64,000 nucleotides of DNA. Source: Armatimonadota bacterium. GTDB lineage: Bacteria; Armatimonadota; SYMT01. Shown here piece by piece: positions 10,880 through 32,354 of the stretch. A model generated the notes under the pieces. The model saw only the letters and a program-made list of their open reading frames with translations. It was not told the origin of the DNA and ran no database searches. The translations under genes were made by a program, and so were the position numbers. The DNA is taken from positions 56,234-120,233 of the forward strand of contig JBKBRF010000014.1 in the NCBI GenBank assembly GCA_046292385.1. Direction: 5' to 3'. Numbering within the stretch: position 1 is the first letter of the stretch; every line of letters starts with the position of its first letter.

Positions 10880-12886
10880 ATGCCAGCGAATCCGTTCGAG
10901 ATTACCAAAGCGGTAGATTTTACTGACGAGCAAATTGTGCAGAACTGGGTAGACTTGCCGGGTGGAGGCTTTCAGTCTCTCGCCGATCCCCGATCGCCCA
11001 TGCCCAGGTTCTTGGTAGGAGGAAAGGGTGGAGGTCGCACACATATGCTGCGGTACTTCTCCTATCCGCTGCAGCGGTTACGTCACGGGAATGACTTGCT
11101 TTCAGCAATACAGGATGATGGATATGCTGGAGTGTATTTCCGATGTACTGGTCTGAATTCTTCGCGGTTTTCGGGGAAGCAGCAAAGTCCCGAAGTATGG
11201 AGCGCTGTGTTTGCATACTACATGGAGATTTGGCTGGGCCGTCTCGTCGTCGACTTAATCAGGGAGTTAGGGTTGGGTAACGCGCAACTCGCTAACACCA
11301 CATCGTCGATGGACTTCGTGAAAGGCGTGAGAGGTCTCTTTGATGAAGAGATCGAGTCAAGCCTGTCGCAGTTGGACACGCTCGACCAATTAGCGGTCTC
11401 CCTTCATAACATCCAGCGCCAGCTTGATCTCTCGATCAACAATGTCGCTCTAACTAGATCCCTCGATGTGCGAATTGCGGTCACCCCTGGGCGGCTGGTT
11501 TTCGGAATACCGGAACTTGCAACCCGAACATTTCCGCAGATCTCTGGCTTAACATTTGCTTACCTCCTCGACGAGTTTGAGAATCTAAGCGAGGATCAGC
11601 AGCGCTATGTAAATACACTGGTGCGTGAGAAGCAACTTCCCACGACATTTGTCATTGGAAGTCGTCAGTTCGGATTGCGAACGCAAGAGACGCTAAGCGC
11701 CGGGGAAGAGAACAAGCAGGGAAGCGAGTTTGACCTGGTCGTATTAGAGGATGCATATCGAACCTCGGATAAGTACTATCACAGCTTTTGCGAAAGAATC
11801 ATTCGAAAGAGACTGGATGCCGCAGGAGTGGATGTCTATCGCCCGGAGAGGCTCGACGCTTATTTCAGCAAGCCATTGGGAGGGGTCTCCGGACTAGAGG
11901 AGCGAGCGCGGATTCATGTTTCGGAGTGCCTTGGTGATCAAGATGAGCGACCGTGGATCATCCGCCTTAAGGATCAACTTCTGCAGTGGTCACCGGGTCA
12001 GGATATAGGAAAGATCATTGAGGAAGTAAGGTTTCCGTCGAGTCCACTCCACGAGAAGTTTGCAGTGCTGCTGGTTTATCGATCCTGGGCCGATGGCAAT
12101 GACCCGCTACGAGAAGCGCGACAGTTCCGATTCCGGATAGAAGCACTAGCTAATGGCGCGCGCGTGGGAGATGACTTAGCCACAACCTATAAACACTACA
12201 GGGGAGATCTCTACGCACAATTGGTCTCGCAGTTGCGTCGGCCGCAGGAGTACCACGGGATTGACGATTTCGTGCTCATGTCCGGCTATCTCCCAAGGAA
12301 TCTTCTGGTGTTACTAAAGCAAGTGACGCGGTGGTCATTATTCCTTGGAGAACACCCGTTCCGCGGTGAGCTGATATCTTCGAAGGCTCAAACTGAAGGA
12401 GTGCGCGAAGCGAGCAACTGGTTTCTTAGCGACTCCAAGGGATTGGGGCGGATCGGTGAAGAAACGGAACTGGCGGTGCGGCGTCTTGGGGGTCTCTTTC
12501 GGGACATGAGATTCGCTGACAAACCGGTTGAAGTAAGTTGCTCGTCATTCTCAACTGATCGCCGGGGACTCACTGACAGAGCTATCGCCGTCCTGGACAA
12601 TGCCGTATCGCATAGTTTAATACTTAAGGTGCCAACTGGGCGGCGTGAGCGAAACACTCACGTACTACAGCACAAGTATCAATTGAACCCCATGCTTGCT
12701 CCATTGTTTGACTTGTCGGTCGCCAGAAGAGGCACAGCGAACTTTACTCCCGAGCAATTAGTCGCACTTTTTGATCCAAGTGTCGATGCAGAGCACTTCA
12801 TCGCTGAGCGAACGCGGCTCTTGGCGCGGCTGAATGCTCCGTTCTCTACTCCGACTCCGCAGCCAGCCCTGGATTTCTCTGAGTGA
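10880..12886 (+). CDS. Large P-loop ATPase, ORC/CDC6- or STAND-like
   Basis: NPF N-terminus, Walker A-like GGKGGGRT, Walker B YLLDEFENL, sensor-like SGYLPRNLL and C-terminal YQLNPMLAPLF. Confidence 0.78.
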   Translation: MPANPFEITKAVDFTDEQIVQNWVDLPGGGFQSLADPRSPMPRFLVGGKGGGRTHMLRYFSYPLQRLRHGNDLLSAIQDDGYAGVYFRCTGLNSSRFSGKQQSPEVWSAVFAYYMEIWLGRLVVDLIRELGLGNAQLANTTSSMDFVKGVRGLFDEEIESSLSQLDTLDQLAVSLHNIQRQLDLSINNVALTRSLDVRIAVTPGRLVFGIPELATRTFPQISGLTFAYLLDEFENLSEDQQRYVNTLVREKQLPTTFVIGSRQFGLRTQETLSAGEENKQGSEFDLVVLEDAYRTSDKYYHSFCERIIRKRLDAAGVDVYRPERLDAYFSKPLGGVSGLEERARIHVSECLGDQDERPWIIRLKDQLLQWSPGQDIGKIIEEVRFPSSPLHEKFAVLLVYRSWADGNDPLREARQFRFRIEALANGARVGDDLATTYKHYRGDLYAQLVSQLRRPQEYHGIDDFVLMSGYLPRNLLVLLKQVTRWSLFLGEHPFRGELISSKAQTEGVREASNWFLSDSKGLGRIGEETELAVRRLGGLFRDMRFADKPVEVSCSSFSTDRRGLTDRAIAVLDNAVSHSLILKVPTGRRERNTHVLQHKYQLNPMLAPLFDLSVARRGTANFTPEQLVALFDPSVDAEHFIAERTRLLARLNAPFSTPTPQPALDFSE

Positions 12887-13848
12887 CGATGGACTACAGC
12901 CTTCTTCGCATTGATCAATATCAGGCAACGGAGCTTGAAGCGCTCCCCGAGTGGGATATCTTCATCTCCGCCTACAACGAGTCGCAGCGAGTAATCACTG
13001 TTTTTGACTCCGTGCGCGCGCAGCGTAAAGAGTGGGTAATCCATCCGGAGTACGACTTCGAGGATGGCGAATTGCCGAAGACCGGAGTTGTGCGAGTTCT
13101 GCATACGCGTGATGAAGCGGAGTTCTGGCATGACTACTTCTCTGAGGCCGACTTTCATAATCTTCCCCGTGATTCCCGGATTTGCGTCGATGTGACGGGG
13201 TTTATGCGTCCGCATTTGATGCTATTACCGCGGATGCTTCGATTGCTTGGATTCGCTCAACTGGATATAGTGTATTCTGATCCTCGTGAGTATCAATCGG
13301 GAGAAAAGACTCAATTCAGCAAAGGGGCAGTCACTGAGGTGCGGCAAATCCGTGGGTTTGAGGGTACACACCTGCCCAGTGGCGACGAGGACTTGCTGGT
13401 CATTGGGGCTGGATATGACGACGATTTGATCCGGAGAGTCTCCGAAGATAAGCGCGCGGCTCGGAAACTGATGATGTTCGGGCTTCCTAGTCTTCAGCCC
13501 CATATGTATGAGGAAAACCGTCTGCGCGCAGCAAGAGCCGAAGAGGCAGTAGGCCCGTTGCCGGCACGTTCTCTGTTGTTTGCGCCCGCCAACAATCCGT
13601 TTGCCACGGCGCAGGAGCTTCACGACAAGATACAACAGTTGCGCTCGACTGGCTTTACGAACCTGTACTTCAGCCCGCTTGGCACGAAGGCTCAAGCACT
13701 GGGATTTGCTCTCTACTATCTGTGCGAGTGTGTGGGTTCGAGTGCGAGCGTCGTATTCCCGTTCGCAGAGTATTACACTCGTGAGACATCCATCGGCTTG
13801 GCTCGCGTTTGGTGCTATCGGGTGGAACTCGATTGGCTGAACGTCTGA
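12883..13848 (+). CDS. Hypothetical Rossmannoid (CARF-like or PRTase-like) partner protein
   Basis: Start overlaps the ATPase stop (GTGA; alternative ATG 12889). Motifs ICVDVTGF, YSDPREY, LVIGAGYD and YFSPLGTKAQALG indicate an alpha/beta fold. Confidence 0.7.
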   Translation: MTMDYSLLRIDQYQATELEALPEWDIFISAYNESQRVITVFDSVRAQRKEWVIHPEYDFEDGELPKTGVVRVLHTRDEAEFWHDYFSEADFHNLPRDSRICVDVTGFMRPHLMLLPRMLRLLGFAQLDIVYSDPREYQSGEKTQFSKGAVTEVRQIRGFEGTHLPSGDEDLLVIGAGYDDDLIRRVSEDKRAARKLMMFGLPSLQPHMYEENRLRAARAEEAVGPLPARSLLFAPANNPFATAQELHDKIQQLRSTGFTNLYFSPLGTKAQALGFALYYLCECVGSSASVVFPFAEYYTRETSIGLARVWCYRVELDWLNV

Positions 13849-20034: not shown

Positions 20035-21153
20035 CTACTTGATGCCGGCCTTCTCGATCGCCTCGCGCATGGCGGTCTCGTTGAAGCCGACGCCGCGCCA
20101 CAGGATCGTGCCGTCCGCCCCGATCAGGTAGTTGGTCGGGTAGGCCTGCACGCCGTAGGCCTTGCCGAGGGTGTACTTGTCGCGGTCGCCGCCCATCACG
20201 ATCGGGAACGACCAGCTGTTGTCCTTGATGTATTTCTGGACCGTCTCCAGCTTGTCGGAGGCGTTCACGGCGACCAGGCCCAGGCCCTTGTCCTTCAGCT
20301 CGGTGTAGATCTTCTGGAGGTGAGGAAACTCCTCACGGCAGGCGCCTCAGCCATAGAACCAGAAGTTGATCACCACCGCCTTCTTGCCCTGGAGCGCCTG
20401 CTCCAGGCTGAGCTGCTGGCCGTCCGGGGTGGGGAGCTGGAAGCTCGGCGCCTTGCTGCCGACCTTCAACAGGCTGTCCTCGAAGTCGGGCTGCTTGAAC
20501 TCTTCGAAGCCCGCCGGGACCTTGAACGCGAACTGCTGCGCGGTCAGCGGCGCGTCGAGCTTCAGGTTCTTGATCCAGATGCGCTGGGTCAGCTTCTGCT
20601 CGCCGTTGCCGAACGTCATCTCCGCCCCTTCCGGCACGCCGGCAGCGGTGAAGAAGAGCTTCTGGGTCTGGCCGCCCGCGCCGGAAACCTGCACTACCTC
20701 GTAGCTCTTGGCGCCGACCTTCTGCGTCCCCAGGTGCTTCGTCTCGCCCCCGGCTCCGAGGGAGTCCGGGTTGAAGAACGCCGCGCCGATCGGGCCCGCA
20801 GCGCTGCCGATCATGCCGCCCTTCTCGTCCGCAGGCTGCTTGAGGTACTGCTTCTGGGAGTCGAGCGTGATGTAGACTTCTTTCCCGGTCGACTGAAAAC
20901 TCTGGCTGCCTTCGGGCGTCTTCAGGGTCAGCTTGCCGAGGTTCGGCTTCAGAAGCTGCACCGTGCCGGTGAGCTCCTGCTTCTCCCCGTCGCTGTTGAT
21001 GTTGATCTGGAGATCCCCGGTCAGGCTCTTCGCCTTCTTCAGGCTCTCCCGCGCCTTCGCCAGGAGCGCGTCGGATTTCGAGTCCGCGTGGGCCGCCGCC
21101 ACCGCCACCAGGGCGGCCGCGCAGGCCAGCGCGGAGATGGGTCGCAAACGCAT
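20035..21153 (-). CDS. Exported LolA-like + TlpA/redoxin fusion; probable selenoprotein (UxxC, TGA at 20347-20349)
   Basis: The ORF-track pieces 20347..21153 and 20035..20268 are in frame. Reading through TGA gives INFWFYG-U-GACREEFPHLQKIY...YGVQAYPTNYLI, matching the TlpA NFWxxxCxxCxxExP motif plus cis-Pro. Confidence 0.9.
20320..20336 (-). promoter_or_regulatory. Putative bacterial SECIS hairpin
   Basis: mRNA reads UGA-GGCGCCUGCC-GUGAGGA-GUU-UCCUCAC: a 7-bp stem starting 11 nt after UGA, with a loop beginning with G. Confidence 0.75.
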
Positions 21154-21216
21154 GGCATACCTCCGATGGGGCCGTGGAGCTCCGGCGAGGCCGCCGGATT
21201 CCGGACCTCGGTCACG

Positions 21217-22368
21217 CTACTTTACCCCGAGCTTCTCAATCGCATCCCGCAGGGTCTTCTCCGTGGCGGGAGAGAAGCCGACTCCCCGCCACGCGACCTT
21301 TCCTTCCGAATCGAGCAGGTAGTTGGTGGGGTAGGCGCGCACTCCGTACGCCTTCCCCAGCGTGTACTGCTCCCCCTTGCCGCCCATCACGATCGGGAAG
21401 GTGAACTTCCCTTCCTGCACGTACTTCCGGATCGTCTCCTCGCTGTCGCCCCGGTTGACGGCGATCAGCTCGAGACCCCGGTCCTTCAACTCTTCGTAGA
21501 TCTTCTGGAGGTGCGGAAACTCCGCACGGCAGGCGCCTCAGCCGTAGAACCAGAAGTTGATCAGGACCGCCTTCTTCTCTTTGAGCGCGCTTTCCAGGCT
21601 CAGTTGCCCGCCGCCCGGTTGGGGCAGCTGGAACCGTGGCGCCTCTTTGCCTACCGGGATCAGCTCCGCCGTGTAGTCCGGCGCCACCGGCTGCGCGATG
21701 ACATATTTCTGGTAGCCCTCCGGAATCTCCCGCACCAGCTCTTCCGGCTTCGCCGGCTCGTTCAGGCGCACTTCCGTGAGCCAGCCGGAGTTGCGCAGCA
21801 TCTGGTCGCCGGTGCGGAAGAGGAGCTCCACCCCGCGCAGCACTCCCGCTTCGTCGAAGAAGAAGCTCCGCTCCTGCGGCGCCCGCTCCGCCCGGAGCTG
21901 CAGCACTTCGTAGGTCCGGCCGTCCACCTCCTTCCGGCCGCCGTAGCTCAGCGTGCCGGCCTCCAGCTCCGCCTTCAGGTTCAAGAAGGCGTGCATCGGC
22001 ATGAACGTCCCACCGAAGCCGACGTTACGCCCCTGGGGATCGGCGGCCGATTCCAGGAACTGCTTCTGCGACGTCATCAGCCGGAGGAGCTGCTTTCCGT
22101 CCGAGACGACGGTCTGGACGGGGGCGCCCTCGAAGAGCACCGTGTAGCGTGCCAGGTTCGGGCGCTGGATGACCCCCTTGACCCGGTACTCGAATTCTCG
22201 ACCGCCGCCGCCGCGCGTGATCTTCATCTCACCGCGCAGCGTCTGGATCTTCTCCGCCGCCGCCAGGGCTCGCGCCTTCAGCGCCTCCGCCTGCTCGTCG
22301 GCGCGCGCCGCCAGGCCCAGCGCCAGCACGCCCAGCGCCGCCAGCAGTCCCGCATGCCGTCTCCTCAT
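21217..22368 (-). CDS. Second exported LolA-like + TlpA/redoxin fusion; probable selenoprotein (UxxC, TGA at 21538-21540)
   Basis: The pieces 21538..22413 and 21217..21489 are in frame. Readthrough gives INFWFYG-U-GACRAEFPHLQKIY...YGVRAYPTNYLL; signal peptide MRRRHAGLLAALGVLALGLAARA. Confidence 0.9.
21511..21527 (-). promoter_or_regulatory. Putative bacterial SECIS hairpin
   Basis: mRNA reads UGA-GGCGCCUGCC-GUGCGGA-GUU-UCCGCAC; same geometry as 20320-20336 with one A-U to C-G compensatory pair. Confidence 0.75.
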
Positions 22369-22606: not shown

Positions 22607-23797
22607 ATGTCGCTCCGCAGGCTTCAACCGTTCGCGGTGCTCTTCCTCGCGCTGGGAGCGCTGCTCCCCGGTCGCGCGCTGCAGGAGACCCCGCCGCCTC
22701 GCCCGGGTGAAGGTCACCTGGTCCAGTGGGAAGGCTGGAGCTTCCGCTGGTCGGTCCGCCCGCGCGAGGGGATCGTGCTCAGCGACGTGTCGTTCCAGGG
22801 CCGCAAGGTCTTAAAGCACGCCTCCATCGTGGAGATCTTCGTGCCGTACGACCAGGGCCAGCCGCGTCCGGAAGACTCGCTGGACGGGATGGGCGTCAAC
22901 CTGGTCGAGCTGCTCCCCGGAAAGGACTGCATCCCCGGCACGATCTGCCGCATGCTCAATGCCGAGGGCAAGGAAGAGGGGAAGCGGCTGGTGGGGCTGC
23001 ACGAGGAATACACCGGCCTGAACTACCTGGGCGACCAGGGCCGCTCCTACGGCAAGATGCTGGTGCTCTGGGGCAGCTCCCGGCTGGGGAAGTACACCTA
23101 CTTTCTCCGGTGGCGGTTCAGCAGCGACGGCAGCATGCACCCGGACGTGGGCCTCACCGGCCGCCTGGAGCATACCCGCCCCGGAACCACCACGCCGCAC
23201 GGCACGCAGGTGGGGCGCGAATCGAACGGTGAGCCGGTCTTCGCGCCGTCGCACGTCCACAATTTCTACTACCGCCTCGACTTCGACATCGACGGCGCCG
23301 CGGACGACGTGGTGGAGGAATCGAGCCACAAGCAGGACCAGCCCGGCCGGAGCCTCACCGCCCAGGACCAGTGGACGCCGGTGCTCCGGGAGGGCGGCCG
23401 CAGCCTCGACTCGGACGCGTTCCGCACCTGGCGGGTGGTCGACAAGAATTCGAAGAACGCCCTCGGACACCGGCGCTCCTACGAGCTGATGCCGGGCGGC
23501 AACGGCCGGTTCCGCGGCGCGGCGGAGGAGGCGTTCACCCAGGCCGACCTGTGGGTGACGCGCTACCGCCCCAACGAATTCCCGCTCAGCTCCGAGGTCC
23601 CGGTCCCCACCCGCCTCGCGCTGCCGCTCTTCACCAACCGGGAGCCGCTGGCGGAGCAGGACGTGGTGGTCTGGTACACGATGTCGGTCCACCATATCCC
23701 CCGCACGGAAGACTGGCCCGCCATGCCGGTCGTCTGGGCCGGCTTCAACCTGATGCCGAGAGACTTCCTGGACGGCAGCCCTTTGCGGCCGCAGTAG
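22607..23797 (+). CDS. Copper amine oxidase catalytic-domain homologue (exported; atypical TPQ motif)
   Basis: Signal peptide; W..WSFRW...REG.VL, EIFVPY, HVH Cu ligands, RLDFDIDG, LWVTRY and DVVVWY...HHIPRTEDWPAMP. Confidence 0.85.
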   Translation: MSLRRLQPFAVLFLALGALLPGRALQETPPPRPGEGHLVQWEGWSFRWSVRPREGIVLSDVSFQGRKVLKHASIVEIFVPYDQGQPRPEDSLDGMGVNLVELLPGKDCIPGTICRMLNAEGKEEGKRLVGLHEEYTGLNYLGDQGRSYGKMLVLWGSSRLGKYTYFLRWRFSSDGSMHPDVGLTGRLEHTRPGTTTPHGTQVGRESNGEPVFAPSHVHNFYYRLDFDIDGAADDVVEESSHKQDQPGRSLTAQDQWTPVLREGGRSLDSDAFRTWRVVDKNSKNALGHRRSYELMPGGNGRFRGAAEEAFTQADLWVTRYRPNEFPLSSEVPVPTRLALPLFTNREPLAEQDVVVWYTMSVHHIPRTEDWPAMPVVWAGFNLMPRDFLDGSPLRPQ

Positions 23798-31439: not shown

Positions 31440-31781
31440 GACATTCTCCGGGCAGCCGACGTCCGTAATGATACCCCCGCAATCCGCCCGACTGCCAGAT
31501 TCGGGATCGAGCGCCGAATCGAGCCGCGGGTCCCCGGCGCCGCGTCGCGCGCTCGTCCATAGGCGCTGCCGATACCCGGTATGAGAACTTCGATGAAACA
31601 GCTCTGCGGGTGTGTACGTCTGAGGAGCCGGAGCGATTCTCCGTGACAGGCGGGCCTCCAGCCAAAATCGCTGACAGCCTGCCACCCTGGCCCGTAATCT
31701 ATATTCGGGAGTGCGGACATGTCCGCACCCGCGGTTTCTCACCCCGGCCCAGGCCGAACCCCGGAAGGAGGTGATACGCAG

Positions 31782-32318
31782 ATGAAGAAGCTAGCCCTCA
31801 TCCTCGCAGCGCTCGGGATGGCCGTCTCCGCCTTTGCGGCGAACGTCGAGTCCGGACTGAAGCCCGGCGAGCGATTGTCGCCATTTGACGTGGTGGACAT
31901 CTCCGGCCCCGACAAGGGAAAGCAGCTCTGCATCGTTTGAAAGAACGGTGGATCGCCGAACGTCGTTGCCTTTGTCAAGGACGAACCGGCGAAGGCTGCC
32001 AGTTTGGCAGCCCAGATCGAAAAGCTTGTTGAGACGCACAAGGGAGACAACCTCCGCGGCTGGGTGGTGTACATGGGCGGTGCGGAGTCGAAGCCCGCGC
32101 TCGAGAAGGCAGTCGCCGACAAGAACGTGAAGCTCGCCGTCACCTTCCTGCCCGAGGGACCGAAGCAGGCCAGCCTGGCCCGCTACAAGGTCAACCCGGA
32201 AGCGAAGAACACCGTGCTGCTCTACAATCGCCAGCAGGTGCAGGGGAACTTCGTGAACGTCGACGAGAAGTCGTTCGACCAGGTCGCGAAGAAGGCGGCT
32301 GAGATGCTCGGCAAGTAA
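31782..32318 (+). CDS. Exported thioredoxin-like protein; probable selenoprotein (CxxU, TGA at 31938-31940)
   Basis: Strong RBS AAGGAGGTGA; signal peptide; SGLKPGERLSPFDV redoxin-like start; GKQL-C-I-V-U-KNGG continues in frame into the ORF-track piece 32004..32318. Confidence 0.82.
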
Positions 32319-32354
32319 GCCCGGCGTCGCAGCGCGGTATCCCGCCAGACGTGG

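Follow-up and report, generated by a model that had tools for sequence, protein, structure and literature searches.

Two tandem Armatimonadota genes with in-frame UGA codons are predicted to encode exported selenoproteins that join a LolA-like domain to a TlpA/ResA-like redox domain

Does an in-frame TGA end a gene, or does it encode an amino acid within one? The question is raised twice over by two adjacent genes, here called A and B, in a 64,000-nt stretch of DNA from an Armatimonadota bacterium (assembly GCA_046292385.1, contig JBKBRF010000014.1, positions 56,234 to 120,233; this whole stretch is called the window, and its first letter is position 1). The genes are arranged head to tail on the minus strand, each start is preceded by a Shine-Dalgarno-like sequence, and each gene carries one in-frame TGA, embedded in the motif NFWFYG-TGA-GAC-R-(A/E)-EFP, where GAC denotes the peptide Gly-Ala-Cys. 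Translation table 11 breaks each gene into a piece of 276 (A) or 268 (B) amino acids and a short downstream open reading frame (ORF), and it is the truncated pieces that protein collections store (P0003 and P0143). If TGA is read as selenocysteine (Sec, U), the frames continue for 106 (A) and 103 (B) codons to a TAG and complete a thioredoxin fold, with U277 and U269 aligned with the first Cys of the ResA motif WCEPC. Both features, a TGA at the first Cys of a TlpA motif and a frame that remains open for about 100 codons, had been pointed out in a sequence-only reading of this DNA and are confirmed here. Considering the machinery, RNA structure and selection described below, we regard it as almost certain that both are intact selenoprotein genes whose UGA is decoded as Sec.

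The genome (98.45% complete) encodes selA, selB, selC and selD, the genes whose presence the sequence-only reading had named as a check. The selA gene (E 8e-146), the selD gene (over its cut-off and carrying a TGA of its own) and selC are located on contig C11, and selB, also over its cut-off, is located on C16. The tRNA-Sec encoded by selC, whose anticodon is UCA and whose variable arm is long, scores 66.6 bits against a gathering score of 47. Because TGA terminates 885 of the 2,195 long training ORFs, it serves as an ordinary stop codon in this genome.

A candidate recoding signal, absent from the sequence-only reading, follows each UGA. In both genes, a 17-nt hairpin begins 11 nt past the codon, with the sequence GUGCGGA-GUU-UCCGCAC in A and GUGAGGA-GUU-UCCUCAC in B. 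Under the four criteria of the bacterial selenocysteine insertion sequence (bSECIS) model, as given in extracts of PMC13188914, both hairpins have a 3-nt loop starting with G, a 7-bp stem, a distance of 17 nt from the UGA and a predicted energy of −9.9 (A) or −8.6 kcal/mol (B). The stems differ by one compensatory pair, A-U in B and C-G in A, which corresponds to a Glu/Ala change on one arm and a synonymous Pro change on the other. Under the codon usage of the genome, a stem with all seven pairs would arise by chance on the same peptide with a probability of 1e-3 (A) or 1e-4 (B), and both genes employ the rare codons CGT and TTT, plus CCT in gene B. A strict hairpin test is passed by 287 of the 131,166 TGA triplets of the genome (0.22%).

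To place the two genes in their family, homologues were pooled from searches of 31 genomes and of 7 genomes and from a search of 401 genomes of the phylum. In the largest search, 67 of the 401 genomes matched at E 1e-24, and with at most four candidates scored per genome, 89 places were listed, 32 of which carry one TGA. The family set covers 82 of the 89, and the other seven are without an internal stop. Removal of duplicates left 104 domains, comprising 33 with TGA, 65 with Cys and six with another residue, so that both kinds of homologue proposed earlier as a check exist; the in-frame UGA aligns with the catalytic Cys in a single column. The placement of TGA is beyond chance, given that this column matches the first Cys of ResA and that 32 of the 89 listed places have one TGA. 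In L051, L092, L058, L054, L039 and L034 the first Cys or the whole motif has been lost (SxxC, FxxC or none), and these members are possibly non-catalytic.

The hairpin tracks the codon through this family. At least six of the seven pairs are kept in 31 of the 33 TGA domains versus one of the 65 Cys domains, and the 26 closest Cys forms, several of which have the same peptide, pair at the level of shuffled sequences (47%). Across 32 distinct TGA rows, 93% of cells pair, two-sided changes occur in three pairs and 13 cells, and neither the covariation score nor the cell count was matched by any of 500 shuffles. RNAalifold recovers the same helix unaided, the C-G variant is found at no fewer than four separate places on the tree described below, and among 22 full-length TGA forms the codons of the hairpin show less synonymous difference than others (0.38 vs 0.63-0.67). 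The sole Cys form with an intact hairpin, a TGT gene of genome G155 (L094, contig C26), is the sister of a TGA gene from the same genus (L096, contig C43 of G344), and the two hairpins are identical and intact. The TGT form is likely to represent a recent Sec-to-Cys change, in a genome where selA is still present.

Moreover, the halves of these genes that follow the UGA are under purifying selection. Six pairs among four close TGA homologues give dN/dS values of 0.03-0.15 past the UGA and 0.11-0.14 in the N-terminal domain; relaxed selection downstream, which the sequence-only reading had listed as a sign that it was wrong, was not seen. The frame runs for 100-106 codons past the TGA in all 22 full-length TGA forms. 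Mean identity among TGA forms is 26% in the N-terminal domain versus 46-49% in the thioredoxin domain. Identity between A and B amounts to 43% overall, with 29% in the N-terminal domain, 70% immediately ahead of Sec and 62% past the UGA, a pattern that agrees with the earlier remark that TGA has been kept while the N-terminal domains diverged strongly. The dN/dS between A and B was set aside, as saturation and GC bias compress dS and leave the ratio uninformative.

Machinery and codon also go together across the phylum, where selB scores over its cut-off in 23 of 31 sampled genomes. TGA forms occur in 26 genomes; among the 25 other than the present one, 23 have a strong selA match and the remaining two have selB over its cut-off. 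G281, G126 and G055 have neither a strong selA match nor a tRNA-Sec match. In G281 and G126, full-length selB-like genes that score below the cut-off are retained, and their family members are Cys forms, which may point to a decay of the Sec trait. Those homologues that have names carry the labels Armatimonadota, Abditibacteriaceae, Capsulimonadales and Fimbriimonadaceae; the fusion family is thus spread through one phylum, which by this evidence is also the probable origin of the window. A word-index search with the N-terminal region returned solely the truncated protein of the window and one relative, and a contig scan with the single protein returned one irrelevant partial match.

A quick maximum-likelihood tree of 58 rows, in which the trait column was included, needs 11 Sec/Cys changes, at least six of them forced by well-supported branches. 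Because of the trait column and several long branches, the direction of these changes is left unrooted. Genes A and B are sisters in this tree (SH-aLRT 85), which suggests that the pair arose by tandem duplication within its own lineage. Tandem pairs are also present in G002 (one Cys and one TGA form) and in G247 (two Cys forms).

In the structural model described below, the C-terminal domain of gene B superposes on ResA (2f9s) with a Z-score of 20.9 and an rmsd of 2.0 over 137 aligned residues. It is identified as TlpA/ResA/DsbE-like by its extended thioredoxin fold, by U-x-x-C, by an acidic residue three positions past the second Cys and by a Pro at the cis-Pro position. The acidic residue, Glu275, falls at the column of ResA Glu80 (ResA numbering follows PDB entry titles) and is Glu in 44 of the 45 rows of the family alignment; Pro339 is likewise kept in 44 rows, and the resolving Cys in all 45. 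Glu80 of ResA has a role in reductant reactivity. The mature chains contain the Sec and Cys of U-G-A-C and no further Cys. A three-domain DsbD (contig C84) and a heme-copper oxidase subunit I are encoded in the genome, and its cytochrome c assembly genes are on contig C7, not at the gene pair.

Both proteins are probably exported, with a signal peptide that would be cleaved after an AxA motif. In the family, Ala23 is present in 34 and Asp24 in 41 of the 45 rows. Of the earlier proposal that these are exported selenoproteins rather than pseudogenes, the selenoprotein part stands, on the strength of machinery, bSECIS and purifying selection, and the export part has the support of the signal-peptide features and their conservation. 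Between the signal and the redox domain lies a region that is homologous in A and B and resembles LolA and DUF2092 proteins, both of which points had escaped the sequence-only reading. In an alignment-based structural model (pLDDT 93.9, pTM 0.81), which replaced a discarded single-sequence AlphaFold model (pLDDT 42), residues 24-221 superpose on LolA (4mxt) with a Z-score of 17.5 and an rmsd of 2.8 over 178 aligned residues. The region forms an open beta-barrel with a helical lid over about 200 residues and so belongs to the LolA-like fold superfamily. Among the 45 family members, 28 match DUF2092 and 15 match LolA; family profiles match LolA structures at E 9e-13 and 5e-11, and a family profile matches E. 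coli LolA at E 7e-11 with the KRPN and SDGK stretches aligned. TIGR00547 matches the N-terminal domain of gene B at E 4e-7, with 29.7 bits against a cut-off of 112, and a direct profile search of the genome with PF09865 and PF03548 gave no match. Residues D24, P70, G90 and F126 are kept in 41-44 of the 45 rows. DUF2092 has been linked to LolA and its hydrophobic cavity, according to the portion of PMC4520260 that treats it. As a separate observation, a stand-alone 228-aa exported protein is encoded two genes from dsbD (L130:1318-2004, contig C84 of this genome, G000); it weakly matches the LolA-like profile (E 5e-4), has no Pfam match and is a candidate for the real lipoprotein carrier. The genome also encodes Lnt.

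Table 1. Features of the gene pair, in window coordinates
Feature	Position	Strand	Details
Gene A, 383-aa selenoprotein precursor: signal peptide, LolA/DUF2092-like domain and TlpA/ResA domain with U-G-A-C	21217..22368	minus	AGGAG 5' of ATG
Gene A predicted Sec/SPase I signal peptide, residues 1-23	22300..22368	minus	A-R-A before Asp; basic n-region, hydrophobic core, AxA-D
Gene A LolA/DUF2092-like domain (approximate bounds)	21679..22299	minus	alignment to gene B; family profile matches to LolA structures
Gene A TlpA/ResA-like thioredoxin domain	21220..21660	minus	PF00578 E 8.5e-23, PF08534 E 1.3e-19
Gene A in-frame TGA (Sec277)	21538..21540	minus	
Gene A bSECIS hairpin	21511..21527	minus	+11 to +27 after UGA; 7-bp stem, GUU loop, −9.9 kcal/mol
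Intergenic spacer A/B, 63 nt	21154..21216	minus	GGAGGT ribosome-binding site for gene B
Gene B, 372-aa selenoprotein precursor, architecture as gene A	20035..21153	minus	43% identity to gene A
Gene B predicted signal peptide, residues 1-23	21085..21153	minus	A-H-A before Asp; inferred
Gene B LolA/DUF2092-like domain, residues 24-222	20488..21084	minus	model residues 24-221 vs LolA 4mxt
Gene B TlpA/ResA-like domain, residues 229-372 (U269, C272, E275, P339)	20038..20469	minus	ResA 2f9s match
Gene B in-frame TGA (Sec269)	20347..20349	minus	
Gene B bSECIS hairpin	20320..20336	minus	+11 to +27 after UGA; 7-bp stem, GUU loop, −8.6 kcal/mol

The redox half of this architecture has precedents. UxxC TlpA/redoxin selenoproteins have been known since 2005, as indicated in the relevant part of a Sargasso Sea study (PMC1088965), and Table 1 of PMC13188914 catalogues UxxC types that are thiol-disulfide isomerase-like (cd02966), redoxin (PF08534) or Prx-like thiol:disulfide oxidoreductase (PF00578). 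The novelty that the sequence-only reading attached to a UxxC TlpA domain was therefore overrated. Genes A and B share with the catalogued proteins the TlpA/redoxin fold, Sec at the first CxxC position, a bSECIS within the ORF and widespread Cys homologues. A LolA/DUF2092 fusion is not among the 119 families in Table 1 of that 2026 catalogue, a comparison made by family listing and not by the domain make-up of representatives, and the terms 'LolA', 'Armatimonad', 'periplasm' and 'signal peptide' have no occurrence in its main text. No description of a LolA/DUF2092-redoxin selenoprotein family was found in the literature by title or abstract start, a scope that leaves out most subscription papers as well as supplementary selenoproteome tables, which could hold members. 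In this fold, Sec is an expected residue at this position, and the fused LolA-like partner is an unlisted variant of a known selenoprotein type.

Neither protein scores over the cut-off of any NCBIfam model. The ResA-like WAxxUGC family NF041054 and the 'UGC-containing TlpA' proteins are likewise selenoproteins of ResA/TlpA type whose Sec falls in a corresponding region (E 1e-10), but genes A and B have U-G-A-C instead of U-G-C and, with 41.4 and 37.5 bits against a cut-off of 300, lie outside this group. Sec-peroxiredoxins carry PxxxTxxU (PMC13188914), in place of which both proteins have FWFYG-U-GAC. Gene B resembles ResA and DsbE/CcmG/TlpA (Z 20.9-22.0, rmsd 1.6-2.0 over 137-138 residues) and has, like them, the Glu80 equivalent, a Pro at the cis-Pro position and a DsbD encoded in the genome. 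Unlike these proteins, A and B have Sec for the first Cys and a cleavable signal followed by a 200-residue LolA-like domain, with no membrane anchor; they are not beside cytochrome c assembly genes, and they reach 88.6 bits against an NCBIfam cut-off of 170. Curated score, anchor and gene context thus all place them outside ResA/CcmG/TlpA orthology. The N-terminal domains have the open beta-barrel and helical lid of LolA and DUF2092 proteins (PF03548, PF09865; Z 15-17.5), but unlike LolA they are fused to a redox domain and show 14-18% identity, and no sign of a role in the Lol pathway was seen. At the position of the gating Arg of LolA, gene B and 22 of the 45 rows have Lys, and gene A and 15 rows have Arg. 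Fused, and at 29.7 of the required 112 bits, they are not LolA proper, which stands alone and scores over its cut-off.

These relationships are obscured in databases. Among the best 150 representatives from a library of 1.84 billion proteins, 29 break off at F-W-x-x-x, exactly ahead of the Sec column, and U occurs in none, a residue that the library may not keep. Fifteen truncated representatives were looked up: 10 bear a name such as lipoprotein-sorting protein, DUF2092 or chaperone LolA, or cluster with a protein that does, and a further one is 'hypothetical', as is a sixth-row member. For the Cys form of the fusion, existing annotations read redoxin-domain or lipoprotein-sorting/peroxiredoxin protein. 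The present assignment corrects a systematic misannotation, in which truncation before the Sec codon hides the family, and extends the bacterial selenoproteome by a domain architecture not previously listed.

Computation thus establishes the recoding signals, the decoding machinery, the selection and the two-domain fold, and we propose the following mechanism on this basis. In a well-supported first step, SelB bound to the hairpin 11 nt downstream would deliver Sec-tRNA(Sec) to the UGA, and the full-length chain would be exported by the general secretory route, with its signal peptide presumably cut after AxA. In the mature protein, the LolA-fold domain would pack against the ResA/TlpA domain. 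The selenolate would attack a disulfide or an oxidised thiol of an envelope client, the Cys three residues on would resolve the adduct to a selenenylsulfide, and DsbD would re-reduce the enzyme; this cycling and re-reduction are deduced from TlpA/ResA chemistry. In the least certain step, the fast-diverging LolA-like domain may capture hydrophobic or lipid-anchored clients and give the paralogues different specificities. As a whole, this scheme, in which a periplasmic reductase supplied by DsbD acts on clients that are hydrophobic or lipidated, seems to us an even call.

Several points weigh against it. Selenium incorporation, export, the DsbD partnership and the substrate are predictions from sequence and model. 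Neither window protein by itself matches PF03548 or PF09865, and the mean N-terminal identity of 26% would also fit a loosely constrained spacer. No neighbouring gene is conserved beyond close kin at 39 loci (mostly with flanks of about 1.5 kb), and gene context therefore points to no client. The covariation counts are drawn from related sequences and hence inflated, the number of pairs with a two-sided change (three) was equalled in 38 of the 500 shuffles, and the tree is a quick version that includes the trait column. Among genomes with TGA forms, G385, G388 and G002 have fragmented selA matches, and G267 (92% complete) has selB over its cut-off and lacks a strong selA or tRNA-Sec match.

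The low N-terminal identity, set against 46-49% in the thioredoxin domain, is also the starting point for the alternative that fares best. The proteins could be genuine exported selenoproteins in which the LolA-like domain is a soluble tether or spacer that replaces a membrane anchor, leaving a general periplasmic thiol reductant. Consistent with this, the Sec-TlpA module occurs elsewhere in the genome behind a TPR-rich N-terminus, another long N-terminus or a signal peptide alone. However, the N-terminal dN/dS in close homologues and the four residues kept in nearly all rows suggest a constrained domain, and the pTM of the model suggests a fixed arrangement of the two domains. We consider the tether reading unlikely, although it deserves to be kept in view.

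Lower in our estimate, and rather improbable, is an envelope lipid-hydroperoxide or peroxide reductase, whose LolA-like cavity would extract an oxidised acyl chain for reduction by the selenolate. The hydrophobic cavity implied by the LolA fold (PMC4520260, same portion) and the encoded heme-copper oxidase subunit I fit this proposal. Selenolates are faster than thiolates in peroxide reduction, which also counts in its favor. Yet the domain is without the peroxiredoxin TxxU motif, retains ResA-type features and finds its best structural matches among disulfide reductases. In a slightly more doubtful reading, the fusion might be a redox-active lipoprotein or lipid carrier of an oxygen-respiring cell, whose cavity holds an acylated client in the envelope while the selenolate repairs the client's peroxide or oxidised sulfur. 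Termination at UGA would yield a LolA-like domain that is complete and secreted, and the supply of selenium could therefore conceivably switch the gene between a carrier-only product and a carrier-reductase.

We give little credence to a ResA-, CcmG- or TlpA-like reductase dedicated to apocytochrome c or to oxidase assembly. ResA and DsbE are the closest solved structures and the genome has cytochrome c assembly genes, but these lie away from the gene pair, none of the 39 loci reveals a conserved assembly-gene neighbourhood, the scores fall far below the NCBIfam cut-offs for ResA, DsbE and TlpA, and there is no membrane anchor. That UGA is a real stop, leaving pseudogenes or stand-alone LolA-like proteins with a vestigial tail, would explain the truncated database entries named for lipoprotein sorting or DUF2092, and some truncated product is indeed expected because termination at UGA competes with Sec insertion, but the shared TGA column in 33 domains of 26 genomes, the open, conserved downstream frame, the purifying selection and the covarying hairpin make this extremely improbable. 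Reading of UGA as Cys or Trp by another tRNA, or a genome-wide code change, is just as remote, since its one indication, a second UCA-anticodon candidate on contig C77 (ARAGORN), is spurious, being badly paired and absent from the nine RF01852 matches, and since TGA commonly ends ORFs here and the hairpin tracks TGA.

The gene pair is part of a larger predicted selenoproteome. Six further UxxC TlpA-like genes were found in the genome (TGA positions and strands C18:43731+, C4:280460+, C22:72762+, C17:7389-, C6:130982- and C13:85289-), most with a hairpin in the same register; their N-termini comprise a signal only, a TPR-rich form of 807 aa and a 488-aa form that weakly matches the LolA-like profile. 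Fourteen more Sec candidates (C41:2869+, C1:280484+, C4:136679-, C18:101383-, C14:88171+, C51:19350+, C22:80449-, C2:119448-, C66:25267+, C5:194066-, C5:150206-, C39:27796+, C23:69226- and C11:88584-) include a BCP-type Prx, a deiodinase-like protein, redoxins, three AhpD-like CxxU proteins, a rhodanese, an ArsC/Spx-like protein, an ABC substrate-binding protein and SelD. The candidate at C14:88171 falls inside the window, at about 31700-32320 on the plus strand. In all, the Sec candidates of the genome number at least 22, and many of them have signal peptides. No in-frame stop or TGA is present inside any of its six molybdopterin oxidoreductase matches, so that the search revealed no Sec formate dehydrogenase, even though FdhA is as a rule the most common selenoprotein of bacteria.

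Sec forms have been tied to anaerobes (PMC1794560, in part), and sections of reviews describe bacterial selenoproteins as mostly anaerobic and seldom kept by aerobes. Three features come as a surprise: the LolA-like partner, the frequency of Sec/Cys switching and the richness of a partly exported selenoproteome beside a marker of oxygen respiration. Natural Sec/Cys pairs, such as the TGA form of G344 and the TGT form of G155, allow a direct test of the benefit of Sec in an oxidising compartment.

The gene pair is flanked downstream by a PEP carboxylase gene and upstream by a divergent gene (22607-23797, plus strand) for an exported protein like the copper amine oxidase enzyme domain (PF01179, E 1e-65). 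No terminator-like site was found in the 63-nt spacer, and no sigma-70 promoter or terminator match was obtained. Seven RNA runs contain small shares of its sequence (0.06-0.22 of words). In one rhizosphere RNA-Seq run, contigs 88-100% alike span both post-UGA halves, the UGA of gene B and the A/B spacer, with nearly bare flanks; these contigs are mostly those of relatives and come without strand, and DNA carry-over is possible. Two adjacent tRNA-like calls elsewhere in the genome (C5:199142-199303) have four-base anticodon loops (ctct and cgaa). Finally, two overlapping ORFs of 668 and 321 aa at 10880-13848 of the window (plus strand), the first with an N-terminal GKGGGRT P-loop-like motif, have a visibly different codon style and are possibly an acquired island.

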